The notes under the pieces are model-generated. The model saw only the letters and a program-made list of their open reading frames with translations. It did not search any database and was not told the origin of the DNA. A stretch of DNA of 64,000 nt from Syntrophales bacterium (GTDB lineage Bacteria > Desulfobacterota > Syntrophia > Syntrophales > PHBD01), in assembly GCA_963668175.1 (NCBI GenBank), contig OY764159.1, forward strand, positions 4,160,001-4,224,000. The letters run 5' to 3'. Shown piece after piece: positions 1 through 15,924 of this stretch (position 1 is the stretch's first letter; every line of letters starts with the position of its first letter). A program made the position numbers and the translations under genes.

Positions 1-777
1 ATCCCCATTACCCCGGAAGAGATCGCTCAATCGGCCGTTGAAGCCTGGCGGGCAGGGGCCTCCATCGTCCACATCCACGTCCGGGACCCGGAAACGGGCC
101 TCGGGACGCAGGACCTCAACCGATTCAGACAGGTCGTGGATATCCTGCGCAAAAAGACCGACCTCATCCTGAGCCTGACGACCAGCGGCATTCCGGGCCG
201 CAATCTGCCGGTCGCCGAACGTCTGGCACCGCTCAAACTGAAGCCGGAATTGGCATCCTTCGACGCCGGATCAATCAACCTGGGCGGCGGGGTCTTCGTC
301 AACGACCCGGCCTTTCTCGACGAGGCCGCCCGGATGATGAAAGAGGCCGGCGTCAAACCCGAGATCGAAATCTTCGACCTGGGGATGGTCGTCACAACCC
401 TCAGGATGCGGGACGAGGGAAAGCTGTCCGATCCGCTCCATTTTCAGTTTGTCCTGGGTACCCCCTGGGGGGCTCCGGCCACGCCCAAAGCGTTTCTCCA
501 CCTTCTGGAACATATTCCCGACGACGCCACGTGGTCGAATATCGGAATCGGGCGGGGGTATCTGCCGATGGCCATGATGGCCCTTATCATGGGGGGACAT
601 ATCCGCGTCGGCATGGAGGACAACATCTACCTCGACAAGGGCGTCCTGGCCAAAAGCAACGCCGAACTGGTGGAACGCGTCATACGGATCGTCCGCGCCT
701 ACGGACGCGACGTCGCCTCTCCCGAAGAAGCCCGGCTTATTCTCGGCATTCGCACGAAAACAAAGGAAAACGTATGA
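1..777 (+). CDS. 3-keto-5-aminohexanoate cleavage enzyme (BKACE/DUF849) family protein, 5'-truncated by the window edge
   Basis: Frame is open from base 1: IPITPEEIA...GASIVHIHVRD, ASFDAGSIN, KPEIEIFD, GGHIRVGMEDNIY are BKACE motifs. Confidence 0.9.
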   Translation: MPITPEEIAQSAVEAWRAGASIVHIHVRDPETGLGTQDLNRFRQVVDILRKKTDLILSLTTSGIPGRNLPVAERLAPLKLKPELASFDAGSINLGGGVFVNDPAFLDEAARMMKEAGVKPEIEIFDLGMVVTTLRMRDEGKLSDPLHFQFVLGTPWGAPATPKAFLHLLEHIPDDATWSNIGIGRGYLPMAMMALIMGGHIRVGMEDNIYLDKGVLAKSNAELVERVIRIVRAYGRDVASPEEARLILGIRTKTKENV

Positions 778-1847
778 ATATGAAACCGAAGTTCCTGGCC
801 ACGGGAGTCGGCAGCATGCCTTTTGACGATCCCGGCCATGGAATCGACCTGTTAATGGAGGCGCTGCCCGACGCCCCCTTCTGGCCTCAACTGCCGAAAA
901 AGGGGCTTCACGAGCAGATGGAAATCCAGTTCTGCGAGGGGATGCCCAGGGCAGTCATTGACGAGGGGAAGAACCGGCTTTATTTCGATACGTCGGGAGA
1001 CTATTCGGAGGAACTTGCCGATTTCTACGGGACCTACATGGCGGCGATGGACCCCGACGAAGGCAACGGCGACTGTTCAGCCCTGGCCATCGGCCCGTCC
1101 TTTTCCTCGGGTATTTATGCACTGGATGAGCGCCTCCGGCAGATGAACAGGAAACTGCCGTTTCTCAAGGTCCAGGTCACGGGACCTTGCACATTCTCTC
1201 TGACCGTCAACGACGAGAATAGGCGAGCCGTCTATTACAACGATGCATTCCGGGATGTGGTCCTCAAGGCCCTGGCCATGAAATGCCGGTGGCAAATCCA
1301 GAAATTCAAGCCTTACGCGGATCATGTCATTTGCTTCATCGACGAGCCGATTCTTTCCGCCTTCGGAAGTTCCACCTATGTTTCCGTCAAGAGGGAAGAC
1401 GTCGTCGCCCTTCTCGCCGAAATGATCGGCGCCGTCCACGCCGACGGCGGTATCGCCGGCATCCACTGCTGCGGCAACACGGAGTGGAGCATTCTCATCG
1501 ATGCCGGCGTCGACATCGTGAATTTCGATGCCTTCCAGTATGGCGAAACCGTCGCCATGTACCCGGCCCACATCAAGAATCATCTTGAACGCGGGGGCAT
1601 GCTGGCCTGGGGTGTTGTGCCGACCTCCGCAGCGATCGGCGAGCAGACGTTAGAAGGGCTTGCGGAACGTCTCGAAGGCGTGATGGCGCACCTCGCGACC
1701 AAGGGAACCGAAAAGAGATTGATCGCCGAACAGGCCTTGATTACGCCTTCTTGCGGGACGGGTTCCATGTCGCCGGCAGACGCGGAACGGGTCTTCCGCC
1801 TGACGGGGGAACTCTCCCGGGAAATGAAACGCCGGTACGGATTCTGA
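774..1847 (+). CDS. Core (folate-independent) methionine synthase, MetE C-terminal-domain-only, MesB-like
   Basis: ATG at 774 overlaps the upstream TGA (ATGA); ATGVGSMP, TGP, FIDEP, Zn-ligand GIHCCG and TPSCG motifs; about 357 aa, lacking the MetE N-terminal half. Confidence 0.8.
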   Translation: MNMKPKFLATGVGSMPFDDPGHGIDLLMEALPDAPFWPQLPKKGLHEQMEIQFCEGMPRAVIDEGKNRLYFDTSGDYSEELADFYGTYMAAMDPDEGNGDCSALAIGPSFSSGIYALDERLRQMNRKLPFLKVQVTGPCTFSLTVNDENRRAVYYNDAFRDVVLKALAMKCRWQIQKFKPYADHVICFIDEPILSAFGSSTYVSVKREDVVALLAEMIGAVHADGGIAGIHCCGNTEWSILIDAGVDIVNFDAFQYGETVAMYPAHIKNHLERGGMLAWGVVPTSAAIGEQTLEGLAERLEGVMAHLATKGTEKRLIAEQALITPSCGTGSMSPADAERVFRLTGELSREMKRRYGF

Positions 1848-2020
1848 TCACCGGCCATACCCCCGACCTGTGACGATTCAAAGGCGGGACAGAGGCAAGA
1901 TATCCCGGCTTCCGGCAGATTATTTCTCCCGGAATGGATGAAGACCGGAAAAGGCCGCCGACCGCAAAAACGGAAGGCTTGATGAAGGAACCGAACTAAA
2001 ACAGGAAAAGACTTTTCACC

Positions 2021-2788
2021 ATGAGTTACATCATCGCCATAACGGGCAAAGGAGGCGTCGGGAAAACGACGGTTTCCGCCGTTATGATCTCCCGCATGAT
2101 CGCCCGCGGCTGCCGCCCCATCCTGGCCATCGATGCCGATCCCAATACCAATCTCGACGCCGCCCTCGGCATAGAGATAGCAAAAACCATCGGCGGAATT
2201 CGCGAGGAAGCCAAGCATTACGCCAACATGGGAATGGCGTCGGGTATCGACAAGAAGAGACTCCTGGACATGAAGATCGCCGAAAGTCTCGTCGAAAGCC
2301 GCGATTTCGATATGCTGGCCATGGGCCGGTCCGAAGGGGCGGGGTGTTACTGTTATGCCAACAACATCCTCAAAGACGCCATCCAGCAGCTGGCAGCCCA
2401 GTATCCCTACGTCATCCTCGATAATGAGGCCGGGCTCGAGAATCTTTCGCGCCGCATAATCCAGTCTGTCGATCTCATGATGATGGTCACGGACCCTTCG
2501 GTCAGGGGTATGGATACGGTCAGGCGTCTTCACGGCCTGACGGCAGAGATGGGAATCGTTTATAAGAATCTGGCCGTGGTTATCAACCGATTAAGACGGG
2601 ATGAGCTTCCGGGTCACGCCGATGCCCTGATCCGCGACATTAACGCCGGATTTGTCCTTGCTCTGCCGGACGACGACGATATCGGCCGTCGCTCCGAGGA
2701 AGGGATCAGTCTTGCCGATTTGGCGGCTGACAATCCCATCGTATCGAGAATCGACCACCTCCTCGACCGCTTAAGTCTGTCCGGTTAG
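2021..2788 (+). CDS. cooC: CO dehydrogenase/acetyl-CoA synthase Ni-insertion ATPase (CooC/AcsF)
   Basis: GKGGVGKTT, IDADPNTNL, GCYC and DNEAGLENLSR motifs. Confidence 0.93.
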   Translation: MSYIIAITGKGGVGKTTVSAVMISRMIARGCRPILAIDADPNTNLDAALGIEIAKTIGGIREEAKHYANMGMASGIDKKRLLDMKIAESLVESRDFDMLAMGRSEGAGCYCYANNILKDAIQQLAAQYPYVILDNEAGLENLSRRIIQSVDLMMMVTDPSVRGMDTVRRLHGLTAEMGIVYKNLAVVINRLRRDELPGHADALIRDINAGFVLALPDDDDIGRRSEEGISLADLAADNPIVSRIDHLLDRLSLSG

Positions 2789-2800
2789 AAAACAGCAGAA

Positions 2801-3457
2801 CTACTGCCGGGGATATCCGATCGTCTGGGCAAGGATGATCCGCTGGTCGTCCCTTAACATCATGGCTTTTCCCAAGACCACCCTGTCGATATTGCCCCTC
2901 ACGACCGTCGCCAATCCTTCGGAAGCACAGTAGAGATAGACGTTCTGGCTGACAAAACCCGTATCCGTGGCGGAGTAGAAATCCTTTTCCTCGGGAGTCG
3001 CTTTTCCCATTCTGGCCAGATCGGCCACATAAATCAGATTGACGGGGGCTTCCTTGACGTAAGGCTGGCTTCCGGTAACACCCCTGATATCCTGTTTGAG
3101 CAACATCTTCAGGCTATGGGTGGCGGCATCGTAAAGGTAAAGGCCGTCTGCGGTTGCGACATAGATATCGATCTCCTGCCAGTTGTTCGCCGAAGGTGCC
3201 GTTCTCCCGTTCGTCTGCGGACGGTTCACGCCGCAAGCAGCCCAAAGGATATTCGACAAAACGCGGATGGGCAGCTTTTTAGGGCTGAAATTCCGAGACG
3301 TTTTCCTGTCTTTCAACACCTGCATCAACATGCGGCTGCTGTCCATCTGGGGCTTGAGGAGTTTAATCGTCTTCAAATCCTGGGCTAAAGCAACTGCAGG
3401 GAAGAGCAGGAGAATAACCGCGACAAATTTTGCCGTTAGGCAACATCTGATAAACAT
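2801..3457 (-). CDS. Nitroreductase / SagB-ThcOx-family oxidoreductase with signal peptide
   Basis: RKTSRNF, RTAPSANNWQ, DTGFVSQNVYLYCASEGL motifs; AGGAGG upstream of the ATG at 3457; AxA signal peptide. Confidence 0.85.
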   Translation of the reverse strand: MFIRCCLTAKFVAVILLLFPAVALAQDLKTIKLLKPQMDSSRMLMQVLKDRKTSRNFSPKKLPIRVLSNILWAACGVNRPQTNGRTAPSANNWQEIDIYVATADGLYLYDAATHSLKMLLKQDIRGVTGSQPYVKEAPVNLIYVADLARMGKATPEEKDFYSATDTGFVSQNVYLYCASEGLATVVRGNIDRVVLGKAMMLRDDQRIILAQTIGYPRQ

Positions 3458-3763
3458 TTTGCGTCCCCCTCCTGTTTCATCAAAATTCATACGGACACGC
3501 ATCTGACCGATACACTTTAACAGTTTAAAAATCAAGCATATTTCAGTACCGCCAACGACCCCGGCGGCCGCATCGCTCTGTAACCGTACGCCGCGCGACA
3601 CCGAAAACTTGGCCATGGTAAGATTAAACCGCCGCCGGACCCAAGCAAGCCGGGTGCCTTTCGGGTATGAACCGGGCACACACAAGGACTCGCCGCGAAC
3701 GGCTGTTTAAATATCTTGACGGCATGACCGGTATCATATATCAGAACACCTAATCGTTTGTAA

Positions 3764-3857
3764 CCGCTGCCTTAAAGGTTCTCTGAGATGGGAACTCCCG
3801 GGCGGCGGGCGGCGGCGACGCCTGATCGTGCGCCCGCCGGTATTTTCCATTTTTATT
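3764..3857 (+). promoter_or_regulatory. Candidate attenuator (alternative stems plus U-rich tail) in the cooS leader
   Basis: CCGCTGCC (3764-3771) can pair with GGCGGCGG (3801-3808); CGGCGGGCG (3803-3811) can instead pair with CGCCCGCCG (3831-3839), which is followed by TATTTTCCATTTTT. Confidence 0.35.
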
Positions 3858-4005
3858 CAGAGATTGTATAATTTCATGATGGCATCCCTCGTTTTCGGCC
3901 TGAAGCCCCACGGCCGTCCGGCCTTCCCGGGGATTAACATAGAGATCGGTCCCGTGTGCAGACCGTTGCGTCGCAGGAAGAGAGCGGACCGATGAACATT
4001 TTCCG

Positions 4006-5964
4006 ATGAAAGACATGAACCCAAGAAAAATGGACCCTAAAGAACGGCTCTGGGACCCGGCATCCATAGAAACCCTGGTCAAAGCCGAACGGGAAGGCCT
4101 GGAAACCTGTTTTTCCCGGATGGATAATCAGGGGAGCACCTGCACATTTGGAAAGAACGGCCTCTGTTGCCGCATCTGCTACATGGGGCCGTGCCGGATT
4201 ACGAAAAAGGCCCCCCGCGGCGTTTGCGGGGCCGATGCCGATACGATTGTCGCCAGGAACCTCCTGCGGGAAGTGGCCGGAGGTACAGCCGCCCATTCCG
4301 ATCACGGCCGCCATCTGGTATTGCTTCTGAAGAAGACCGCCGAAGGAAGGTCCGGGGATTACACGATAAAAGACGAAAAGGCTCTCCGTCAGGCGGCAAG
4401 ATGGTACGGAATTGCCGAAGAAGGCCGCAGTAAAGAGACCGTCGCCCTGGAACTGGCGAGTATCTTTCTTCAGGAATTCATGAAGCAGGAAGAATCGCCC
4501 GCGACCGTGAGCCTTGCTCCGGCAAAACAGCAGACGATCTGGCAGAACCACGGCCTTACACCCGCCGGTCTCGATCGGACCGTCGTGGAATCGATCCACC
4601 GTACCCACATGGGCGTCGACCATGAATACCGTAATCTGCTCCTCCAGGCATTCCGTACGGCCCTGGCCGACGGGTGGGGAGGCTCCCGGATAGCGACCAT
4701 CTGCTCCGACATTCTGTTCGGTACACCCTCTCCTGTCCGCAGCGACGCCAACCTGGGGGTCCTCAACACAGAAACCGTCAATATCGTCGTCCACGGGCAT
4801 GAACCGGAGCTGTCGGAATTGCTGGCCATCGCATCCAGGGACCCCGAAATGACCGCCTATGCCCGCATTGCAGGTGCCGAAGGCATCACCCTCGCTGGAA
4901 TCTGCTGCACGGCCAATGAAATCCTCATGAGGCACGGCATTCCCGTGGCGGGAAGTTTTCTCCAGCAGGAATTGGCCATCGTCACCGGCGCGGTGGAAAT
5001 GATGCTCATCGACGTCCAGTGCTGTATGCCCAGCTTGCCCGAGATCGCAGCGGCCTACCATACGGAGATCGTCTCCACGACGGAAATGGCCAAGACGGCA
5101 GGAGCCTCCTTCATTACGCTCGACGAACACGAACCATTGAAATCCGCGAAGATGCTCATCAAGAGGGCCATCGACCGCTATAAGCTCCGCGACCCGAACA
5201 AGGTCGCCATTCCGGCGGTTAAAAAGCCCCTGGTAGCCGGATTCAGCGTCGATGCCATCAAATACATGCTGGGAGGCAGCTTCCGGGCATCCTTCCGTCC
5301 CCTGAACGACGCCGTCATCCAGGGACGCATAAGAGGTATCGCCGCAATCGTCGGCTGCAACAACCCCCGGTCGAGGGTGGATGAGTACATCAATATCCTC
5401 ACCCGTCAACTGATCGGCCGGGACATCCTCGTCCTCAAGACCGGCTGCGCGGCCATCGCTTCCGCCAAGGAAGGGATGCTCACTCCGGAAGCGGCGCTGG
5501 AGGCGGCGGGAAGCGGGCTGAAAGAGGTCTGCGAGGCGGTGGGCATGCCCCCCGTCCTGCACATGGGAAGCTGCGTCGACAACTCCCGGATTCTGGAAGC
5601 CGCAACGGAGATCGTCCGCGAAGGCGGGCTGGGAGACGATTTGTCCCAGATACCCGCCGTCGGCATCGCCCCCGAATGGATGAGCGAAAAGGCCGTGGCC
5701 ATAGGCTGTTACTTCGTCGCATCGGGGATCGACGTCATCCTGGGACATCCGTTCCATATAGGCGGTTCCGAAAAGGTCACCCGCTTCCTGAACAAGGAGG
5801 CCAGGACCCTGTTCGGGGCCTCCTTCCACGTCTGCGAAGAACCGGAAAAAGCAGCAGATGCGGTCGTCAAGATCATCGATAATGCAAGGGAACGTTTGGG
5901 CATTCATCGACAGGCCTCCCGGAAGCTCTTCGACATGGAAGACCGGAGGATGCTCGATGTCTAA
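4006..5964 (+). CDS. cooS: Anaerobic Ni-CO dehydrogenase catalytic subunit
   Basis: CCRICYMGPC, HSDH, HGH, GICCT, DVQC, GCNN, KTGC, GSCVD and SEKA cluster ligands. Confidence 0.97.
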   Translation: MKDMNPRKMDPKERLWDPASIETLVKAEREGLETCFSRMDNQGSTCTFGKNGLCCRICYMGPCRITKKAPRGVCGADADTIVARNLLREVAGGTAAHSDHGRHLVLLLKKTAEGRSGDYTIKDEKALRQAARWYGIAEEGRSKETVALELASIFLQEFMKQEESPATVSLAPAKQQTIWQNHGLTPAGLDRTVVESIHRTHMGVDHEYRNLLLQAFRTALADGWGGSRIATICSDILFGTPSPVRSDANLGVLNTETVNIVVHGHEPELSELLAIASRDPEMTAYARIAGAEGITLAGICCTANEILMRHGIPVAGSFLQQELAIVTGAVEMMLIDVQCCMPSLPEIAAAYHTEIVSTTEMAKTAGASFITLDEHEPLKSAKMLIKRAIDRYKLRDPNKVAIPAVKKPLVAGFSVDAIKYMLGGSFRASFRPLNDAVIQGRIRGIAAIVGCNNPRSRVDEYINILTRQLIGRDILVLKTGCAAIASAKEGMLTPEAALEAAGSGLKEVCEAVGMPPVLHMGSCVDNSRILEAATEIVREGGLGDDLSQIPAVGIAPEWMSEKAVAIGCYFVASGIDVILGHPFHIGGSEKVTRFLNKEARTLFGASFHVCEEPEKAADAVVKIIDNARERLGIHRQASRKLFDMEDRRMLDV

Positions 5965-8900
5965 GATCATCTGTTCAAGCGCCATCGACGGCGGCATCGC
6001 CTGGATCGCCCGCGCGGAAGAATTCCTGGATCGGGCCGTCCGGCAAAAAGGAGAAGGGGCCGTCGTCGCCTTTCCGGACAGCGCCTACTTCCTTCCCGTC
6101 ATTTATTCCTTCACCGGCGAAAAGGTACGTACCTTAAGCGATCTGCGCAGGCTCCTGCGCTATGCAAAGACCCTGCTTCCTCCCCGGCCCACGGATCGCG
6201 TCTGGCTGCCGTACCTGGGAAACGCCCTCGATGCGGGCGTCGCCTCCCTCTTTGCCTGCGAAATCATCGAGGCCTGCAAGTACCTCATCGGCCCCAACCC
6301 GATAGACGGCATATGGCTGGGTGCGGCGAGCGATGTCATTATGCGCGAACGGGGCATTGAATTCGTCGACGGTACGGCACCCGGCTTTGCCGCCATTACC
6401 GGCGCCGCCCCCACGAACGAAATCGCCGTTTCGATAGCCCGTGCGCTCCAGGAGAAGAACCTTTATGTGTTCATGGCGGGCCCGTCGGGGGGGCGCCAGT
6501 TCGCCGAACAACTCGCGGAGGAAGGCGTTCAACTCGGCTGGGAAACGCGCCTTGTGCCTTTCGGCCGCGACGTCTCCGCCCTGATCTACGCCCTCGGCTT
6601 CGCGAACCGGGTGGCCCTTTCCTTCGGAGGAGTGCAGGCAGGAGATTTCGAACGCAATTTGAAGTACAACAAAAACCGCATATTCGCTTTTGTTCTGGCC
6701 TTCGGTGAAGTAACGCCGGACAAATACGCCCTGGCCGCCGGCGCCATCAACTACGGATTCCCGGTCATCGCCGATACGGACATCCCCCAAATCCTCCCCA
6801 CGGGCGTCTGCACATACGAGCACGTGGTTTCAAACGTCCCCTACGAAAGCATGGTGGAGAAGGCCCTTGAAGTCCGGGGATGTAAGATCAAGATCACCAA
6901 GGTGCCTATCCCTGTTCCCTACGGCTCCGCCTTCGAGGGCGAACGCATCCGCAAGAGCGACGTCCACGCCGAATTCGGCGGCGGCATGACGACGGCCTTC
7001 GAATTCGTCACCATGGCGGACATGGACGAGATTGCAGACAACACCATCGACATCATCGGTCCCGACATCGACGCCGTCGAGCCGGGAACCGTGCTGCCCC
7101 TCTGCATCTGGGTGGAAGTGGCCGGACGCAAAATGCAGTCCGATTTCGAACCGATCCTGGAGCGCCAGATCCACCACCTCGTCAACGGTGCAGAAGGGAT
7201 ATGGCATATGGGGCAGCGGGACATCGTCTGGACGCGTATCTCCAGGAGCGGATACGCCAAGGGCCTGCGCCTGAGACATTACGGAAACATCATTTACGCG
7301 AAATTCGTCTCGGATTATCCGGCCATCGTCGACAAGGTGAAGATCACCCTGATCACCGACGCAGCAGAGGTCGAAAGAAGAGTGACCCACGCCCGCAGGG
7401 TTTACGACGAACGCAACCGCCGCCTGGAATCGATGACGGACGAATCGGTGGACACTTTTTACTCGTGTCTGCTCTGCCAGTCCTTCGCCCCCAACCACGT
7501 CTGCATGATCACCCCGGAGCGCCTGGGGCTTTGCGGAGCCTACAACTGGCTCGACGGAAAGGCCGCCTACGAGATCAACGAAACGGGCGCCAATCAACCG
7601 GTCGCCAAAGGGACCTGCATCGATCCCGTCAAGGGCATCTGGGAAGGGGTCAACGATTATGTGCGTATGGCCAGCCACAAGGCGATCTCTTGCTATTCGG
7701 CCTATTCGATCATGGACAGGCCGATGACGAGCTGCGGCTGCTTCGAGGCCATCTGCGCCTACCTCCCCGAATGCAACGGCGTCATGGTCGTGAGCCGGGA
7801 ATTCAGCGGCGACACCCCGATCGGCATGACCTTCTCCACGCTGGCGGGCAGCGTCGGCGGGGGCCATCAGACGCCCGGATTCATCGGCGTCGGCAAGGTG
7901 TTTCTCACGTCGAGAAAATTCCTCTACGCCGAAGGCGGACACCGGCGGCTCGTCTGGATGCCGAAGGCCCTCAAGGAAGCCCTGGCCTACGATCTCAAAA
8001 AACGGTTTGAAGAACAGGGATGTCCCGATCTCTGGGACAAGATCGCCGATGAAACAGTGGCCATCGACGCCCATCAGGTAAGGGCGTTCATGGACCGGGT
8101 CCAACATCCTGCCCTGGCCATGGCCGATATGCAGTCTCTTGCGGAAGAATCTCCCCGTGCTGCAACGGCGGCGCCGACGATCGCCGACACCGTCCCGGCA
8201 CCCGACAAGAAGGCGGGAGAAGTCGGCGCCGGCTCTGTGAAGCCTGACGACATCGTCCGGATGAAAGAAGAAATAACTGCCGACATCCTGAGCAAGCTGA
8301 AGTCCTCCCTCGCGGGCGAGATCATGGCGGGCGTAATGGCGGCGCTGGGTTCGAAGCCCCGGGATGAAAGCGAGAAAATAGCCCCAGCCGCTCCTGCATC
8401 GGATGTACCTTCACGGGAACATTTTTATGTATCGGCGGTGAATCGTATCGACGCCGTGACGGCATTTCCGGTACGCCGCGAGACATACGGAACGGCGATT
8501 CAGGAGGTCACGCTCGGTGCCGCTCCGGAATCCGGCGGTACCAGGGCAAAGACGGTCACGGTGGGAGGCTCGACATGCATGCCCTTCCACTTCTGGGAAG
8601 GCCGAATGCCGCATCGCCCGGTCATCGCGATGGAGGTCTTCGACAGGATCAGCGAAAAATACCCTCCTGTTCTCAGGGAATGTTACGGCGGTCTCCTCAA
8701 CGATCCTCCGGCCATGGCGCGGGCCTGCGTGGAGAAATACGGTGCCGATCTCATCAGCGTCCGCCTCGACGGCACACACCCCGACCGCGGCAATTATTCA
8801 CCCGAAAAGGCCGTGGAACTGGTGAAAGCGGTTCTCGGCGCCGTGGATGTGCCGCTCATCGTCACCGGACACAGCCACTACGACCGCAACAACGAAGTCA

Positions 8901-9433
8901 TGAAGGCCGTCGCCCAGACCTGTGCCGGAGAGGGTCTTCTCCTCAACTGGCTGGAGCAGGACAACTACCGGACCATAGCGGGGGCGGCTATCGCCTACGG
9001 ACATGCCGTCGTCGCCCAGAGCCCCATCGACGTGAATATCGGCAAGCAGTTGAACATCCTCCTCACGGGCATGGATATGCAGCCCGGCCGGATCGTCATG
9101 GACCCGATGACCGGCGCCGTCGGATACGGCATCGAATACACGTATTCCGTCATGGAAAGGATCAGGCTCACGGCTCTCGGCGGCGACCCGATGCTCGCCT
9201 GCCCGCTGATCGTCTCTCCCGGGCAGGAATGTGCCAAGATCAAGGAATCGAGGGCGTCGGAAGCCGATTTCCCGGCCTGGGGGAATCTGGCCAAACGCGC
9301 GGCGGTTTGGGAATTGGCGACGGCGCTGGGCCTTCTCTACGCAGGTGCCGATATCCTGATCATGTATAACCCTGAAGCGGCCGGAGCTCTGAAGCGGACG
9401 ATCATGCGGTTGATGGAAGGCGGCGGCCAATAA
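5957..9433 (+). CDS. acsB-acsD: Acetyl-CoA synthase (AcsB) fused to the corrinoid Fe-S protein small subunit (AcsD)
   Basis: GGAGG then ATG at 5957; A-cluster motifs CLLCQSFAPNHVC, GLCGA, TSCGCFE; Ala/Pro-rich linker; then AcsD-like IQEVTLG...SPIDVNIGKQLN...MDP...GYGIEYTYSVMERIR...GADILIM, all in one uninterrupted frame. Confidence 0.93.
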   Translation: MSKIICSSAIDGGIAWIARAEEFLDRAVRQKGEGAVVAFPDSAYFLPVIYSFTGEKVRTLSDLRRLLRYAKTLLPPRPTDRVWLPYLGNALDAGVASLFACEIIEACKYLIGPNPIDGIWLGAASDVIMRERGIEFVDGTAPGFAAITGAAPTNEIAVSIARALQEKNLYVFMAGPSGGRQFAEQLAEEGVQLGWETRLVPFGRDVSALIYALGFANRVALSFGGVQAGDFERNLKYNKNRIFAFVLAFGEVTPDKYALAAGAINYGFPVIADTDIPQILPTGVCTYEHVVSNVPYESMVEKALEVRGCKIKITKVPIPVPYGSAFEGERIRKSDVHAEFGGGMTTAFEFVTMADMDEIADNTIDIIGPDIDAVEPGTVLPLCIWVEVAGRKMQSDFEPILERQIHHLVNGAEGIWHMGQRDIVWTRISRSGYAKGLRLRHYGNIIYAKFVSDYPAIVDKVKITLITDAAEVERRVTHARRVYDERNRRLESMTDESVDTFYSCLLCQSFAPNHVCMITPERLGLCGAYNWLDGKAAYEINETGANQPVAKGTCIDPVKGIWEGVNDYVRMASHKAISCYSAYSIMDRPMTSCGCFEAICAYLPECNGVMVVSREFSGDTPIGMTFSTLAGSVGGGHQTPGFIGVGKVFLTSRKFLYAEGGHRRLVWMPKALKEALAYDLKKRFEEQGCPDLWDKIADETVAIDAHQVRAFMDRVQHPALAMADMQSLAEESPRAATAAPTIADTVPAPDKKAGEVGAGSVKPDDIVRMKEEITADILSKLKSSLAGEIMAGVMAALGSKPRDESEKIAPAAPASDVPSREHFYVSAVNRIDAVTAFPVRRETYGTAIQEVTLGAAPESGGTRAKTVTVGGSTCMPFHFWEGRMPHRPVIAMEVFDRISEKYPPVLRECYGGLLNDPPAMARACVEKYGADLISVRLDGTHPDRGNYSPEKAVELVKAVLGAVDVPLIVTGHSHYDRNNEVMKAVAQTCAGEGLLLNWLEQDNYRTIAGAAIAYGHAVVAQSPIDVNIGKQLNILLTGMDMQPGRIVMDPMTGAVGYGIEYTYSVMERIRLTALGGDPMLACPLIVSPGQECAKIKESRASEADFPAWGNLAKRAAVWELATALGLLYAGADILIMYNPEAAGALKRTIMRLMEGGGQ

Positions 9434-9506
9434 CGGATCAGATCTATATTCCGGGACCTTGCTTTAGCAGAAAGGTACTGTATACGATGACAGCAGGACG
9501 TTTTTA

Positions 9507-10853
9507 ATGGCATTGACAGGACTTCAGATACAGAAACTTCTTCCCAAGACCAACTGCCGGGAGTGCGGCTCCAATACGTGCATGGCGTTCGCCATGAGGC
9601 TTGCCGCCAGGAAGGCCGACCTCTCCCTCTGTCCGTATGCATCCGACGAGGCGAAGGCCATTCTGGGCGCCGCGGCCGAGCCGCCGGTGCGGGAGATCGG
9701 CTTGGGCGTCGACGGCGCCCTGCGGACAGGCGGCGAAACGGTCCTGTACCGGCATGAAAAAACCTTCGTCCACCGGACCATCTTCGCCGTCAATATCGAC
9801 GACACGACAAACGATGAACAGATTGACGCCACGCTGAAAGCCTTGAAGGGATACGCCCTCGATAGAGTGGGCGAAACCTTCAAGCTTGATATGATTTCCC
9901 TGACCCAAGCAGCGAAGGATGCCCCGGCCTTCATCGAACTCGCCCGCCGCGCCGCCGCCGTGACGGAACTGCCGCTCGTGATCCGCAGCAAGGACCCGCA
10001 TCTCCTTGCCGAAGTCTCGGCGGCGTTAAAGGGAACTACCTGCGTCCTCTCCGCTGCAACGCCTGACACCGCCGCCATACTCGGGACGTCGGCCAAGGAA
10101 AACGGCCATGTCCTTGCCGTCACGGCTTCCGATATCAATGCGATGACGGCCTGTGTAAAGAACCTCAGGGATACGGGCCATACCGATCTGCTTCTCCAGT
10201 TTCAATCCTCCAACGTGGCCGAACAGTTCCAGACCAACACGGTCGTGCGAAGGGCAGCCCTCATGGACGGTGTCAAACCGATGGGCTATCCCTTCCTTCG
10301 CTTCATCGACCCTGCCGGAGATACCCTCGATATCGCCGCCGAAACGGCAACGGAAATCCTGAAATACGGAGGCATTTGCGTTCTGCCATCCTTCGATCCG
10401 GCCATAATCGCCGCCTTCATGACATTGAGGCTCAATATCTTCACCGATCCTCAGAAACCGATCCAGGTGGAGCCCAAGATATACGCCATCGGCGAGCCGG
10501 ATACCGAATCGCCCGTCTTCGTAACGACCAACTTCGCCCTCACCTATTTCATCGTCTCCGGCGAACTTGAGAACTGCGGCATCGGAAGCTGGCTTGCCGT
10601 CCCGGACTGCGACGGCATGAGCGTTCTTACGGCCTGGGCGGCAGGAAAATTTTCCGGCGCAACCGTGGCCAAGTTCATCAAGGAATCGGGACTGGAAGAC
10701 AGCGTTAAAACCAGGACCGTCACCATACCGGGCTATGTGTCGGTCATCAGCGGAGAGATCGAAGAAAACCTCCCGGGCTGGAAGGTCCTCATCGGCCCGC
10801 CGGATGCATCCGACCTGGACGGCTATGTCAAAGTGATGCTCGGTAAACCCTAA
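9507..10853 (+). CDS. acsC: Corrinoid Fe-S protein large subunit (gamma)
   Basis: LPKTNCRECGSNTCMAFA...CP 4Fe-4S domain, GGETVLYRHEK, NIFTDPQKP, TTNFALTYF, SVLTAWAAGKF. Confidence 0.96.
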   Translation: MALTGLQIQKLLPKTNCRECGSNTCMAFAMRLAARKADLSLCPYASDEAKAILGAAAEPPVREIGLGVDGALRTGGETVLYRHEKTFVHRTIFAVNIDDTTNDEQIDATLKALKGYALDRVGETFKLDMISLTQAAKDAPAFIELARRAAAVTELPLVIRSKDPHLLAEVSAALKGTTCVLSAATPDTAAILGTSAKENGHVLAVTASDINAMTACVKNLRDTGHTDLLLQFQSSNVAEQFQTNTVVRRAALMDGVKPMGYPFLRFIDPAGDTLDIAAETATEILKYGGICVLPSFDPAIIAAFMTLRLNIFTDPQKPIQVEPKIYAIGEPDTESPVFVTTNFALTYFIVSGELENCGIGSWLAVPDCDGMSVLTAWAAGKFSGATVAKFIKESGLEDSVKTRTVTIPGYVSVISGEIEENLPGWKVLIGPPDASDLDGYVKVMLGKP

Positions 10854-10868
10854 CCCGGACTTTACAGC

Positions 10869-12764
10869 ATGCCGCGGATAACCTTTCATCCTCTTGGAGC
10901 GACCGTCGAGGCGCCATCCGGCCTGGAATTGCGCGATGCCGCAAAACGGGCGGGCATCGAGTTGGACTTTCCCTGCGGCGGCCAGGGGACATGCGGCCGG
11001 TGCGCTGCGCGCGTCCTATCCGGCCGTCTAGACGTCATAGAGACAGCCATCTCGGCCGACACCGTTCCTGATGAAGGATCTATCCTCGCCTGCCGGGCAA
11101 AGATCGGCGATGAAGACGCCGTTGTCGAAGTACGCGAGCAGCCGGATTTGTCAGCCGGTCAGTTCATCGACGAAGAGGAAGAAGCCTCGTTCATACCGCC
11201 TGGATGGCAGGAGCAACCCACCGACCAGGGAGCCCTCGTCTCGACTTATCTCATTGATGTGCCTCCACCGCAGGAGGGAGAAGGCGCCTCGGACTTGGAG
11301 CGTTTGTATACGTCTCTGCGGCGAAATCCGGAGGAGCCTGCCTTCGATTACAGCCTGCATGCGCTGCGCGAGCTGGCGGGCGCCCTTCGCTGCCGAAACG
11401 GGAAGGCGATGGCTGCGGCCGGGCGCTTCGGTGAGCGCCGGCGCCTCGTCCATCTGGAAGCGGGCGGCGACCTCCGTTCTCTTTACGGCATCGCCGTGGA
11501 CCTTGGCACGACCACGGTGGCCGTCAACCTGGTTTCTATTCCCGAAAACCGCATCATCGCGTCACGGACGGAATACAACGGCCAGGTCGTCTGCGGCCTC
11601 GACATCATCAGCCGGATCAATTACGCCGGTCGACCGGAAAGACTGGAAGAACTGCGCCTGAGAGCCCTCAAGACGATCAACGGCTTGATCGGGCAACTAG
11701 CCGCTGCCGTCGCACCGGCCCGGAATCGGATATACGGCTGCGCCCTTTCCGGCAACACGACAATGATCCATCTCTTGCTGGGCATGAATCCCGAGTATAT
11801 CCGTCTTGCCCCCTACACGCCGACCGTTCTGGACGTGCCGCCGCTTCGGGCAGGCGATATCGGCCTCGACATCCACCCGGAAGGCCCCGTCTTCATATCC
11901 CCGGCCGTCGGCAGTTACGTCGGCGGCGATATCACCGCCGGTCTTCTCTGCACAGGCTCCGCCTTCACGAGCGACGAGATATGCCTTTTTATGGATATCG
12001 GCACCAACGGCGAAATCGTCTTGGGAAACGGCGATTTCCTCATGGCCTGCGCCTGTTCCGCAGGGCCGGCATTCGAAGGCGGCGGCATCGGAAACGGCAT
12101 GAGGGCCGCCGGCGGGGCCATCGACCGGGTGCAGATCGATCGGGAAACGGGGCAGGCGACTTATCGCACCATCGGTGATTTGCCCCCGCGCGGCATCTGC
12201 GGCTCCGGAATGCTGTCACTCCTGGCCGGCCTTTTCACGGGAGGATGGCTCGATGCGTCCGGTCGTTTCAAACGGCCGAGTTCTTCATCTTTTATCGACT
12301 TCAAAGGCAGACTGGGGATTTATACCGTTGTTCCCTGGGAGAAGAACGCGATCACCGTGACGGAGCGGGACATCGAAAATCTCATCCGCGCCAAGGCGGC
12401 GCTATATGCGGCCTGCGGCCTGCTCACGAAACAGGCGGGGATCGGATTTCAGAACATAGCAAAGGTATTCATCGCCGGCGGATTCGGGAGGTACCTGGAC
12501 ATTGAAGACGCCGTTACGATAGGATTGTTGCCGGATATCCCCCGGGACCGCTTCCATTACCTGGGGAATGCGTCGCTTAAGGGCAGCACGATGATCCTGC
12601 TTTCGGAAGAACACCGGAGGCTGCAACAGGGGTTCGTGAAACGCATGACCTATGTGGAACTCAACACGGACTCCGAATACATGGATCAATACACGGGGGC
12701 TCTTTTTCTGCCCCACACGGACCGCCGCCAGTTCCCTTCGCTGAAAAACCGGCTGGCGGATTGA
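10869..12764 (+). CDS. acsV: Corrinoid reductive activator, ASKHA ATPase with 2Fe-2S domain (AcsV/RACo)
   Basis: CGGQGTCGRC...LAC ferredoxin domain, DLGTTT, DIGTNGE, SAGPAFEG, GICGSG. Confidence 0.92.
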   Translation: MPRITFHPLGATVEAPSGLELRDAAKRAGIELDFPCGGQGTCGRCAARVLSGRLDVIETAISADTVPDEGSILACRAKIGDEDAVVEVREQPDLSAGQFIDEEEEASFIPPGWQEQPTDQGALVSTYLIDVPPPQEGEGASDLERLYTSLRRNPEEPAFDYSLHALRELAGALRCRNGKAMAAAGRFGERRRLVHLEAGGDLRSLYGIAVDLGTTTVAVNLVSIPENRIIASRTEYNGQVVCGLDIISRINYAGRPERLEELRLRALKTINGLIGQLAAAVAPARNRIYGCALSGNTTMIHLLLGMNPEYIRLAPYTPTVLDVPPLRAGDIGLDIHPEGPVFISPAVGSYVGGDITAGLLCTGSAFTSDEICLFMDIGTNGEIVLGNGDFLMACACSAGPAFEGGGIGNGMRAAGGAIDRVQIDRETGQATYRTIGDLPPRGICGSGMLSLLAGLFTGGWLDASGRFKRPSSSSFIDFKGRLGIYTVVPWEKNAITVTERDIENLIRAKAALYAACGLLTKQAGIGFQNIAKVFIAGGFGRYLDIEDAVTIGLLPDIPRDRFHYLGNASLKGSTMILLSEEHRRLQQGFVKRMTYVELNTDSEYMDQYTGALFLPHTDRRQFPSLKNRLAD

Positions 12765-12769
12765 CGGCC

Positions 12770-14134
12770 TCAATGCTTCAGGCCGTATTTCTTCAGCTTG
12801 TAGCGAAGCATCCTTTCGCTGATGCCGAGAAGTTCCGCGGCCTTGGTCTGGTGGTATCCCGTCTTTTCCATGGCCTCGACGATCAGCCGCTTCTCCAGGT
12901 CTTCGATGGACTCCTTGAGCATCCCTTCTTCCTTTCTGCCCGATTCTCCGTGATCGAACGCATCTTCGCCGAAAGGCAGATCCTCGATGGAAATTACCGA
13001 CTCACGGGCAATCACGACGGCCCGTTCGATGATGTTTTCCAATTCGCGGACATTGCCCGGATAATCGTATTTCAACAGGAGATCCTGGGCCTCGCGGCTG
13101 AAACCTGCTATGTCCTTGCCGTTGTCCGCCGCATAGCGTTTGATGAAATGATCGATAAGCACCGGGATGTCCTCTTTCCTCTCCCGCAGCGGCGGCATGG
13201 CCATAACGACCACATTCAGCCGGTAGAAGAGGTCTTCGCGGAAATCGCCGGCCTTGACCCTCGCTTCCAGATCGCGATTGGTGGCGCTGATGATGCGCAC
13301 GTCGGAGCGGATGGTTTGGTTGCCGCCCACCCGCTGAAACTCACGTTCCTGCAAAAAGCGAAGGAGTTTGACCTGGACCGATTGCGATAATTCGCCGATT
13401 TCGTCGAGGAAAAGGGTCCCGCCGTCGGCCTCTTCAAAACGGCCGATGCGCCGTGCCGTGGCCCCGGTAAAGGACCCTTTCTCATGACCGAAGAGTTCGC
13501 TCTCCAGAAGATTTTCATGCAAGGCGCTGCAGTTGACGGAGATGATGGGCCGCTGCGACCGCGGGCTCAAATGATGGATGAGCTTCGCCATCAGTTCCTT
13601 GCCCGTACCGCTTTCCCCCTGGATGAGTATCGTCGCCCGGCTGGCGGCGACACGTCCGGCCATGTTGATCAGGGCGCTCATTTTCGGACTCCGGAAAATG
13701 ATCTGATCGGTCGTCACTCCTTTTTCCCTGAGTTCCTGTCGAAGCAGTTCATTCTCCCTGATCAGGGTGCGCCGCTCAGATACGCGATCCACCAACAATA
13801 GCAGTTCGTCGAATTCGATGGGCTTGGTAATATAGTCTATGGCTCCTGATTTCATGGCTTCGACAGCCGTCTCGATCGTTCCGAAAGCTGTAATGATCAC
13901 GACGTCGATCTCGGCATTGATCCCCTTGACCGCCTTGAGGACATCCATACCGCTCAGGCCCGGCATCTTGTAGTCGAGCAGGATCAAATCGTAATGGCCG
14001 CTCCGGACCAGTTGCACGCCCTTTTCGCCGTTTTCAGCCTCGGAAACCGAGTGGCCCTCCTTGATAAGGAAATCTCTTAACATTTCCCGCTGGGACTGCC
14101 CGTCTTCCACAATCAGGATGTTCAATTTTTTCAT
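12770..14134 (-). CDS. Sigma54-dependent response regulator (NtrC/ZraR family)
   Basis: Receiver domain, GESGTGKE, GSFTGA, FREDLFYRL, C-terminal Fis HTH. Confidence 0.95.
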   Translation of the reverse strand: MKKLNILIVEDGQSQREMLRDFLIKEGHSVSEAENGEKGVQLVRSGHYDLILLDYKMPGLSGMDVLKAVKGINAEIDVVIITAFGTIETAVEAMKSGAIDYITKPIEFDELLLLVDRVSERRTLIRENELLRQELREKGVTTDQIIFRSPKMSALINMAGRVAASRATILIQGESGTGKELMAKLIHHLSPRSQRPIISVNCSALHENLLESELFGHEKGSFTGATARRIGRFEEADGGTLFLDEIGELSQSVQVKLLRFLQEREFQRVGGNQTIRSDVRIISATNRDLEARVKAGDFREDLFYRLNVVVMAMPPLRERKEDIPVLIDHFIKRYAADNGKDIAGFSREAQDLLLKYDYPGNVRELENIIERAVVIARESVISIEDLPFGEDAFDHGESGRKEEGMLKESIEDLEKRLIVEAMEKTGYHQTKAAELLGISERMLRYKLKKYGLKH

Positions 14135-15924
14135 GTCTGGATACCTTCTTTATTCGCCCGGTCGTTGATATGAATGGTCGGTAAAATGATCTCAAAAGTC
14201 GTGCCGGCGTTCTTGCGGCTGATGACATGTATTTCGCCGCCATGACCGCGGATGATTTCATGGGAAAGAGGCAATCCGAGGCCCAACCCTTTCTCCTTCG
14301 TCGTATACTCGGGATTGAAAATCTGATCCACTTCCTCCGTCGTCATCCCGCAGCCGTTGTCCGATATGCGGATGCTGACCCGGTCTTTGCTTATCTTTTC
14401 CACGGCGATGCGGATGTTGCCTCCGCCGGAGATGGACTCCATGGCGTTCTTGATGAAATTCAAGAGCGCCTGCTGGAGCTTGTCCACATCCATGGGTATA
14501 TTTAGATTGCCGTTCGACCACTCCGTCTTGACCGCAATGCCCTTCTCTTCCGCCTCGGCCTGTATGAGATTGACGATTTTCTGCAGGACCTCCGTGACGG
14601 GATAATCATGGAGTTCCAGGCGGCGGCTTTTGGAAAAGGTCAGGAACTCTTCAATAATTCCGTTCAGACGTCTGATCTCGTCCCGGATGACGCCGGTCAT
14701 GGTCTGAAACTCGGCAACCTGATTCTCGTCCGCCGGCATGAATTCCCTTTTCAACCGCTGGCTGGCCATGCTGATGGCATTTAAAGGATTGCGAATTTCG
14801 TGGGCGACTCCGGCGGCGAGTTTTCCCAGGGCCGACAGCCTTTCCGCCTTCTCCAGGCGGCGCTCTATGTCAACGATTCTAAGCAGGTGCTTATTCTGGT
14901 TCTGGTACAGGAACCACATGGACAACATCGTGATGATCACGACGAGCCCCATGAAGATGAACATGTTTCTCCTGTTCTCTTCCAGGATCTTCTCCGTACC
15001 GCCCCAGTCGATACCCAGCCTCGTAATCCCCACCACTTTACCGCCGAGCGAAAAAGGTACAGCCATATCGAGGAGCTGCTTCCCCAGGTACATAACCTTT
15101 CGGCTCTCCAGCTTTTTCGCACCGGACAGGATTTCCGCCGTATGCATCTCGCCTGGTTTCCAATTTTCCGGAAGGGTTCCGGTGCTGCCCAGCACTTTTC
15201 CCTTGGTATCCATAATTTTAATATAGACGAATCCCTGGCCTTGGCCGAGTTCGCGAATGGCTTTTTCCACGGATACTTTCAATCCCCAGTATTTCAATCC
15301 GTCACGGTCCAGCGCAATGATGATGGTGCCGCTGCCGTCCTTGCGTCTCAAGGCGACAAAACCCAGTTTTTTCACCAGGCTCAACTGGTTCAGGAGCGGC
15401 AACGTTACGGTTTCCTGCCTGGGAATGGAGGCCGCTTCGCCGGTGAACATGTCGGCCGGCAGCGGCCGGCTCTGGAATATGGTGCGGCCGTGCCGGTTCA
15501 GAACGGCGATGAGCCACAGGTCCTTTTCTTCGGCATATTTTCTCAATTCGCTTTTACTTAAATGATCTTCCTTCCATTTCTTATCGACATCCTTGGCCAA
15601 TTCGCCCAGGGCAGCGATGAGCGCCTTCTCCGGCGAGAACGGTTCGATGGTATAGGGCACAAAGGTCCCTTCCGTTCCTTTTTTAGGGGCATGGACAATG
15701 GCGTTCAAGTTTTCCTGCGAAAGGCGCTGTACGACATCGGCCAGACTTGTTCCCCGGCTTTCTATGAAATCCCCCAGGATTTTCTCGATCCGCTGCACGT
15801 CGATGAGACCCATGATAAGGATGAGCCCGATGAAAACGACGGAAACCGTCGCCACGGCGAGAGGCTGTAAAAAAGATCTGCCATAACGGGCGACAAGGCT
15901 CTGCCGCCATATTTTATCTTCCAT
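14131..15924 (-). CDS. Membrane sensor histidine kinase
   Basis: Two TM segments, AHEIRNPL H-box, N/G boxes; overlaps the regulator start. Confidence 0.93.
   Translation of the reverse strand: MEDKIWRQSLVARYGRSFLQPLAVATVSVVFIGLILIMGLIDVQRIEKILGDFIESRGTSLADVVQRLSQENLNAIVHAPKKGTEGTFVPYTIEPFSPEKALIAALGELAKDVDKKWKEDHLSKSELRKYAEEKDLWLIAVLNRHGRTIFQSRPLPADMFTGEAASIPRQETVTLPLLNQLSLVKKLGFVALRRKDGSGTIIIALDRDGLKYWGLKVSVEKAIRELGQGQGFVYIKIMDTKGKVLGSTGTLPENWKPGEMHTAEILSGAKKLESRKVMYLGKQLLDMAVPFSLGGKVVGITRLGIDWGGTEKILEENRRNMFIFMGLVVIITMLSMWFLYQNQNKHLLRIVDIERRLEKAERLSALGKLAAGVAHEIRNPLNAISMASQRLKREFMPADENQVAEFQTMTGVIRDEIRRLNGIIEEFLTFSKSRRLELHDYPVTEVLQKIVNLIQAEAEEKGIAVKTEWSNGNLNIPMDVDKLQQALLNFIKNAMESISGGGNIRIAVEKISKDRVSIRISDNGCGMTTEEVDQIFNPEYTTKEKGLGLGLPLSHEIIRGHGGEIHVISRKNAGTTFEIILPTIHINDRANKEGIQT

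Follow-up and report, generated by a model that had tools for sequence, protein, structure and literature searches.

CO dehydrogenase/acetyl-CoA synthase (CODH/ACS) systems such as those of Moorella thermoacetica, Carboxydothermus hydrogenoformans and Clostridium autoethanogenum comprise four proteins, namely the dehydrogenase CooS/AcsA, the three-domain acetyl-CoA synthase AcsB, and AcsC and AcsD, the large and small subunits of the corrinoid iron-sulfur protein (CoFeSP). The same four proteins are encoded in a stretch of 64,000 nucleotides from a Syntrophales bacterium (assembly GCA_963668175.1, contig OY764159.1, positions 4,160,001 to 4,224,000 of the forward strand), which is referred to as the window. 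AcsB and AcsD are separate polypeptides in the model acetogens, whereas in the window they are joined by a linker of 110 residues that has a conserved, predicted helix. This fused gene, acsB::acsD, is the subject of the current analysis.

The transfer of the methyl group from CoFeSP to ACS rests on a transient encounter which is hard to capture and has only recently been seen by cryo-electron microscopy (cryo-EM). In the C. autoethanogenum complex, as far as the accessible part of the preprint describes it, three anchors hold CoFeSP on ACS; the small subunit contacts the A1 and A3 domains of ACS and serves as the main docking element, and the Fe-S domain of AcsC also contacts A3 (bioRxiv 10.1101/2024.08.05.606187). 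For the ACDS (acetyl-CoA decarbonylase/synthase) complex of archaea, the accessible text of a second preprint describes scaffolding and tethering of the modules by an N-terminal coiled coil of CdhD together with disordered termini of CdhD, CdhC and CdhA (bioRxiv 10.64898/2026.07.07.736967).

The fused gene (5957..9433, + strand) runs over 1158 codons plus stop within a single uninterrupted open reading frame (ORF), which extends over 5858..9433 of the + strand in the ORF listing of the window, and both Pfam and NCBIfam families of the two proteins have been assigned to this one frame. The ATG at 5957 is the likely start, with a GGAGG at 5945-5949, 7 nt upstream, and it overlaps the stop codon of cooS (5962-5964) by 8 nt. 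The product of 1158 residues has the Pfam domains CODH_A_N (22-110), CdhC (318-472), ACS_CODH_B_C (483-725) and CdhD (850-1090). Residues 1-725 (5957..8131, +) constitute a three-domain bacterial acetyl-CoA synthase. The NCBIfam model of the ACS alpha/beta subunit (NF040764) matches residues 11-725 with 1027 bits against a cut-off of 800 and over profile positions 2-704 of 705, and solved ACS chains (e.g. 1ru3_A, 7zkj_B) are matched with 720 bits. In the PDB alignment residues 8-724 align with residues 23-726 of a 732-residue ACS chain, so that the AcsB part is not truncated. The cysteine motifs C504, C507, C516, C526 and C593-G594-C595 (7466..7741, +) are invariant in all 59 fused proteins aligned. 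By analogy with the Moorella enzyme (motif C-x2-C-x8-C-x9-C and C-G-C), we take these residues to be the ligands of the A-cluster.

The C-terminal region, residues 836-1158 (8462..9430, +), is an AcsD/CdhD domain (PF03599) corresponding to the small subunit of CoFeSP. The NCBIfam delta subunit model NF003376 matches residues 837-1153 with 374 bits (cut-off 280) over profile positions 3-312 of 313, and the match of residues 838-1154 to the Moorella small subunit (4djd_D, 306 bits) covers 4-319 of its 323 residues. The acetogen-type AcsD model NF040759 (WLP_AcsD) scores 241 bits, below its cut-off of 430; the domain belongs to another AcsD subfamily than the acetogen type. AcsB, linker and AcsD form a genuine in-frame fusion in which both domains are complete.

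The linker between the two domains, residues 726-835 (8132..8461, +), has low-complexity spacers rich in Ala, Pro and Glu flanking a helical stretch at residues 761-799 (8237..8353, +). It has no stop codon in its own frame as against 9 and 2 in the other two frames, and the linkers of the 59 relatives, which range from 54 to 215 residues, are in frame every time. The main linker class comprises 46 of the 59 aligned proteins, that of the window included, and has variable Ala/Pro/Glu-rich spacers around a conserved stretch of about 40 residues. Mean pairwise identity among these 46 proteins is 0.12-0.15 in the spacers as against 0.78 in AcsB and 0.68 in AcsD, and the frame has thus stayed open across a linker that evolves fast. 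The conserved stretch has hydrophobic positions every 3-4 residues, with one Leu conserved in 98% and one Gly in 91% of the 46 sequences, and its codon-position GC content (0.59/0.38/0.79) resembles that of the enzyme domains. Two capping motifs of the Ser/Thr-x-x-Glu type suggest that the module forms two consecutive helices. In bearing a conserved amphipathic module predicted to be helical, the linker goes beyond a passive tether. A preliminary description of the window had proposed an ORF of about 1158 residues holding a full bacterial AcsB with intact A-cluster cysteines, an Ala/Pro-rich linker of about 110 residues around a short helical segment and a complete AcsD-like domain; all of these have been confirmed, the ligand role of the cysteines being taken over from the Moorella enzyme, and the coordinates are right to within a few bases.

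Two other classes of linkers have been identified. Five closely related Syntrophaceae loci have short linkers of 54-72 residues without the helix. These loci are nested among helix-bearing sequences in the enzyme tree and the helix has therefore been lost secondarily in this sublineage, provided that the root lies outside that clade. Seven Acidobacteriota loci, which form a clade of their own (100% support), have a different conserved helical element, and the linker of one more locus (L004) is unlike those of all three classes. Searches of Pfam with five linkers at E<=10 gave only chance-level matches and the helix falls in no Pfam family; a search of the ESM Atlas with residues 740-835 gave no usable match.

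The AcsD region has been searched against a collection of 5.8 billion proteins, restricted to proteins of 636-2027 residues in clusters at 90% identity, with a threshold of E<=1e-3. Of 8000 candidates scored, at least 1566 clusters match. All of the 120 matches listed also have AcsB domains. The full set of four Pfam domains is present in 106 of them, each at least 1100 residues long, and the remaining 14 are pieces cut at the N-terminus. A scan of one genome per species gave 604 confirmed matches, and the locus counts given here refer to the best 80 of these, all of which are in metagenome-assembled genomes. A single ORF of at least 1100 residues with both domains is found in 59 loci, and in six more the contig ends while the AcsB frame is still running through the linker or AcsD, so that the fusion reads through in 65 of the 80. 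Nine loci are uninformative, mostly owing to an end of the contig or locus within AcsB or shortly after it, and one locus, from Geothermincola (L072), has acsD and acsB as separate genes. One of the nine is a Syntrophales locus (L050:5983-7557), in which the AcsB match ends near residue 508 inside a long contig with no AcsD after it and which may be a truncated or masked copy.

The 59 full-length loci span 12 named phyla, namely Thermodesulfobacteriota, Acidobacteriota, Planctomycetota, Lentisphaerota, Spirochaetota, Verrucomicrobiota, Bacteroidota, Bacillota, Fibrobacterota, Hydrogenedentota, Ignavibacteriota and Kiritimatiellota, in addition to Candidatus Zhuqueibacterota and unplaced bins. 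The fusion is real and common in uncultured anaerobes. The explanation that the long ORF is an assembly artefact, in which a lost stop codon or an indel has joined two genes, arises only from the separate occurrence of acsB and acsD in model organisms, and no point in its favour has been found. It is refuted by the 65 independent loci and by the 106 full-length clusters among those listed; the 110 residues of the linker are also unlike any intergenic layout and contain a conserved helix, and the probability that we would give to an artefact is negligible. The combination of CdhC and CdhD in one protein, to which the preliminary description had drawn attention, is thus found at large in clusters and loci alike, and with an architecture so common the fusion is less surprising.

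The fused protein is likely, on the basis of its sequence, to be a single polypeptide of about 1158 residues through which CoFeSP is leashed to acetyl-CoA synthase by its AcsD subunit. No second AcsD-like ORF has been detected with our own AcsD hidden Markov model (HMM) in the window or within 6 kb of the fusion-carrying loci, the sole other match being a fragment of 48 bits in one locus (L063); the fused AcsD domain would therefore be the partner of AcsC in these operons. The AcsD domain would pair with the separately encoded AcsC to form CoFeSP, which would thus be permanently leashed, one per ACS, to a CooS2-AcsB2 core. Such a leash would locally concentrate the methyl carrier at the docking site of ACS, and the linkers, with the range of lengths seen in the relatives, would be long enough for CoFeSP to come off that site and reach its methyltransferase and reductive activator. 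The conserved amphipathic module may have a role of its own in binding or self-association. In the accessible part of the C. autoethanogenum study (bioRxiv 10.1101/2024.08.05.606187) the small subunit docks on A1 and A3, which makes AcsD the natural part to anchor; being tied to the C-terminus of A3, the natural docking element would be leashed to its own site. The tether proposed in the preliminary description, which would keep CODH/ACS and CoFeSP in a single complex and promote methyl transfer, is plausible and fits the published cryo-EM work, and the fusion may bring a kinetic benefit.

A few observations weigh against this reading. Frame breaks between or within the domains are present in five of the 80 loci. 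In one of them (L055) the breaks are scattered 1-nt indels relative to a close relative and, since they fall within the conserved AcsB, they look like assembly errors. In a search of shorter proteins, the 120 matches listed have 68-79% identity and 36 of them have the AcsB C-terminal domain, which identifies them as pieces of fused genes. Some proteins of 322-446 residues, encoded on contigs of 0.25-0.9 Mb and with 68-76% identity, have their first residue within the linker or where AcsD starts; two (P0320, P0321) begin exactly at the helix, aligned to V761 of the window, and one (P0304) begins at AcsD proper. These three are either split genes or gene calls that follow an indel. If the short entries are genuine, this clade also contains split forms, and the enzyme can do without the covalent link. 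The linker may also be cleaved post-translationally. The absence of the helix from the Syntrophaceae sublineage also belongs here, and the helix is therefore not essential to the tether.

Some of these observations would be accommodated if the fusion served only to secure 1:1 synthesis of the two subunits, the linker being cut or AcsD being started also at an internal GTG, with AcsB and AcsD working as separate proteins. The spacers are of low complexity and probably exposed, and in-frame GTG codons are present both at the start of the helix (8237, V761) and at the point where stand-alone AcsD proteins begin (8456, V834), the two places at which database entries also begin. The nearest GGAG lies about 18 nt upstream of GTG 8237, however, which is beyond the usual Shine-Dalgarno (SD) distance, and the 20 nt before GTG 8456 have no SD-like motif, in keeping with the preliminary description of that codon. 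Nor is an internal start conserved at the AcsD boundary, where the codon is start-capable in no more than 10 of 59 relatives and preceded by an SD-like motif in no more than 12 of 59. No promoter-like or terminator-like site has been found on the + strand in 8132-8461; in the scan of positions 1-13600 promoter and terminator counts are not above those of shuffled sequences (5 vs 4.4; 16 vs 13.2), and one promoter-like site is located at 3844-3872, before cooS. Indel errors on long-read contigs can also yield short gene calls, as the scattered indels of L055 illustrate. We consider a fusion that merely secures equal synthesis quite improbable, and expression as one polypeptide remains the reading that we prefer.

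The conserved module within the linker permits two further explanations, either of which gives the helix a function of its own. The helix could self-associate and, together with the tether, crosslink units of CODH/ACS and CoFeSP into a larger assembly, the bacterial equivalent of the scaffold that the N-terminal coiled coil of CdhD builds in the archaeal ACDS. A conserved amphipathic helix between disordered spacers is consistent with such a role, as are the retention of the helix at the N-terminus of the stand-alone AcsD proteins P0320 and P0321 and the precedent set out in the available portion of the archaeal study (bioRxiv 10.64898/2026.07.07.736967). Other AcsD architectures also show, by eye, an amphipathic helix within low-complexity spacers (P0162, P0172, P0175, P0142, P0144-P0147, P0154, P0157, P0163). 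The hydrophobic spacing of the module is mostly i, i+4 and not a clean heptad, however, and one Syntrophaceae lineage has lost the helix. Homology of the linker helix to the N-terminal region of archaeal-type CdhD is rejected at the sequence level. Aligned by hhalign with the N-terminal extensions of 17 long CdhD proteins, the 46 linkers give a probability of 0.3% and the Acidobacteriota-type linkers one of 0.1%, both below 1%; with the NCBIfam delta models that carry an N-terminal extension, the alignment does not begin before profile position 51 or 103. The helix HMM, searched against 150 AcsD-family representatives, detects only seven under E 1e-4, all of them members or fragments of the main fused clade, and it reveals no similarity to the helices in the linkers of the other architectures described below or of the divergent fusion P0138. 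Self-association of the helix is in our view unlikely.

The second explanation is that the helix docks a partner encoded in the operon, namely a MetE/MesB-like methyltransferase, the RACo-type activator or AcsC. Such docking would predict what is seen, a helix that is conserved between flanks that are not and partner genes that are conserved in the same operon. The MetE/MesB-like gene is nevertheless present with all three linker classes, the helix-less class included, and does not co-vary with the helix. The chances of partner docking appear to us as slim as those of self-association.

The AcsD family comprises 911 representatives at 50% clustering and E<=1e-3, and full-length fusions of AcsB and AcsD are found in two of these, P0127 (AcsD part 60% identical) and P0138 (45% identity in that part and 46% over the full length). 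In the AcsD tree 23 of 24 fused rows fall in one group with a support of 89 in the SH-like approximate likelihood ratio test (SH-aLRT), and the sisters of this group are stand-alone proteins of 323-325 residues. P0138 falls in a separate, well-supported clade. A single origin of all AcsB-AcsD fusions is rejected by the approximately unbiased (AU) test (p 9e-6), for a group that was defined after the tree had been seen, which implies at least two gains or losses of the architecture. In the enzyme tree the window is placed in a Syntrophales clade with 97% support. Elongation factor G of the window, on a contig of 4.57 Mb, agrees with this placement, its named relatives being Syntrophales and Smithella at 75-76% identity. 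Phylum labels in the main clade need 18 changes against a minimum of 11, from which an inheritance that is partly vertical and partly horizontal follows. Other fusions of AcsD have also been identified, in which AcsD follows methylene-H4folate reductase, with or without tetratricopeptide repeats (TPR) (P0172, P0175), or precedes CooS (P0162, 1122 residues). AcsD proteins with C-terminal extensions of 200-450 residues that belong to no known family occur as well.

The operon has the gene order cooC, cooS, acsB::acsD, acsC, acsV. The gene for a Ni-CO dehydrogenase, cooS/acsA (4006..5964, +), is assigned by the Prismane family (E 7e-163) and TIGR01702 (628 bits), and a homolog is found in 69 of the 80 loci. 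The fused gene is followed by acsC (9507..10853, +), encoding the large (gamma) subunit of CoFeSP, with 485 bits to NF003195 and the Pfam domains FeS and CdhD; acsC follows the fusion in 54 of the 80 loci, the remainder being mostly cut by contig ends. The next gene (10869..12764, +) encodes a reductive activator of the corrinoid protein of the acsV/RACo type, which has RACo domains and Fer2 and scores 572 bits with NF040756, below the cut-off of 800. Upstream lies a cooC-like gene (2021..2788, +) for a nickel-insertion ATPase of the CbiA/AAA_31 families, homologs of which precede cooS in 64 of the 80 loci. Two CooC-like genes are found before cooS in 54 loci (e.g. L014:2061-2855 and 3219-4016) and one in 10; the cluster of the window has one. 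A nitroreductase-family gene (2801-3685, -) lies between cooC and cooS in the window and, since none of the 80 related loci has it at that place, it looks like a local insertion. A scan of the window and five loci (141,265 bases) with Rfam has revealed no riboswitch or other element at gathering score.

A gene upstream of this cluster (780..1847, +, with a start at ATG 774 or 780) encodes a protein of about 355 residues that has been considered as a MetE/MesB-like methyltransferase candidate. Its match to the PRK00957 methionine synthase is weak (E 2.4e-5; 1.5e-9 for the homolog in L014) and it has weak similarity to MtbA as well. No Pfam family has been assigned to it, and a PDB search gave no match with the single sequence and only chance-level matches with a profile of 10 sequences. 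A His-Cys-Cys motif and a Cys-Gly motif are invariant in all 10 sequences, and Atlas clusters that resemble the protein are named 'putative methionine synthase' with a score of 0.98. Homologs are found upstream of the CODH/ACS genes in 57 of the 80 loci. These observations point to a candidate corrinoid-dependent, MesB-like methyltransferase. The pterin-binding methyltransferase AcsE has not been seen among the window ORFs scanned (39 of at least 200 residues, and 7 in or around the cluster) or among the 33 ORFs that were checked in the flanks of related loci. At least at the local level, therefore, this CoFeSP does not have the textbook methyl donor or acceptor.

A homocysteine S-methyltransferase gene (PF02574) lies beside the operon in at least 29 of the 80 loci, an undercount as the gene falls at the edge of the fetched flanks (L014:2-880, L016:279-1244, L071:128-1099, L077:13527-14423, L051:13246-14157, L047:12979-13902). 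In the window a BKACE-family gene (1-777) occupies this position. In relatives a DUF3786 gene comes right after the activator (L014:12860-13474, L016:12889-13494, L071:12775-13374, L078:13095-13664). The ORF at that position in the window (12761-13390, +, 209 codons) matches no family and has no homolog in the loci; it overlaps an opposite-strand gene for a sigma-54 response regulator and may not be a gene. This sigma-54-dependent response regulator and a histidine kinase (12770-15924, -) are convergent with the operon and lie just past it.

A wider and rather doubtful possibility combines these genes with the fusion. Instead of a variant of the acetogen enzyme, the fusion may form the centre of a separate module that has spread horizontally and would comprise the MetE/MesB-like methyltransferase, often a homocysteine S-methyltransferase, two CooC proteins, CooS, AcsB::AcsD, AcsC, the RACo-type activator and DUF3786, with no AcsE. 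Leash and helix together would scaffold a self-associating or partner-recruiting assembly of CODH/ACS and CoFeSP, a bacterial counterpart of the archaeal ACDS, and at the same time methyl groups would pass between acetyl-CoA and homocysteine/methionine by way of the operon's products, with no part for methyl-tetrahydrofolate, in many phyla of heterotrophic anaerobes.

A full-text literature search, with supplements outside its scope, has found no paper describing an AcsB-AcsD fusion. The fusion is a variant of a known system that is visible in domain tables and apparently undescribed in print. Public annotations name the fused proteins 'subunit alpha/beta' or 'acetyl-CoA synthase' and so hide the AcsD part, and surveys of the pathway that seek a separate acsD/cdhD gene may score genomes with the fusion as being without the small subunit. 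As a natural and widespread tie between the docking subunit and the synthase, the fusion would give structural and kinetic studies a stable complex from the outset and would be a natural experiment on the effect of tethering on carbon flux. Specialists should find a naturally tethered ACS-CoFeSP and a conserved linker module of interest.

Among the described systems, the Moorella-type bacterial CODH/ACS is further resembled in the A-cluster-type cysteine motifs and in the RACo-type activator that adjoins the operon in the window; the acetogen systems differ in that no acsE is seen in the window operon and the AcsD domain stays below the cut-off of the acetogen-type model. The fusion of methylene-H4folate reductase to AcsD (P0172, P0175), which the accessible part of one paper lists for Desulfurivibrio alkaliphilus (PMC5016858), likewise joins AcsD to an enzyme of the Wood-Ljungdahl pathway by a long low-complexity linker. 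Its partner is an N-terminal methylene-H4folate reductase and not ACS, however, and its AcsD belongs to a different clade. In the Dehalococcoides-type scheme, put forward as a proposal in the accessible text of PMC7857596, methyl groups pass straight from CoFeSP to MesB, a core methionine synthase. The window is similar to this scheme in the clustering of a gene for a candidate MetE-like methyltransferase without folate domain with the CoFeSP and ACS genes and in that acsE is not seen; its protein, with the weak match to methionine synthase, is a putative relative of Dehalococcoides MesB. The words 'fused' and 'fusion' do not occur in PMC7857596 and the AcsB-AcsD fusion is not mentioned there.

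The archaeal ACDS, as it is presented in the accessible portion of the preprint (bioRxiv 10.64898/2026.07.07.736967), shares with the window the principle that disordered segments, with a short helix beside the small subunit, hold ACS and CoFeSP near each other. The survey of ACS variants in that portion does not mention the AcsB-AcsD fusion. The archaeal link is non-covalent and formed through the CdhD coiled coil, whereas the link of the window is covalent; the helical regions share no detectable homology, and the ACS of the window is of the three-domain AcsB type. The archaeal enzyme has recently been proposed to use disordered tethers, with the bacterial enzymes as the contrast. The family of fusions described in the current analysis suggests that many bacteria tether as well, by a different route.

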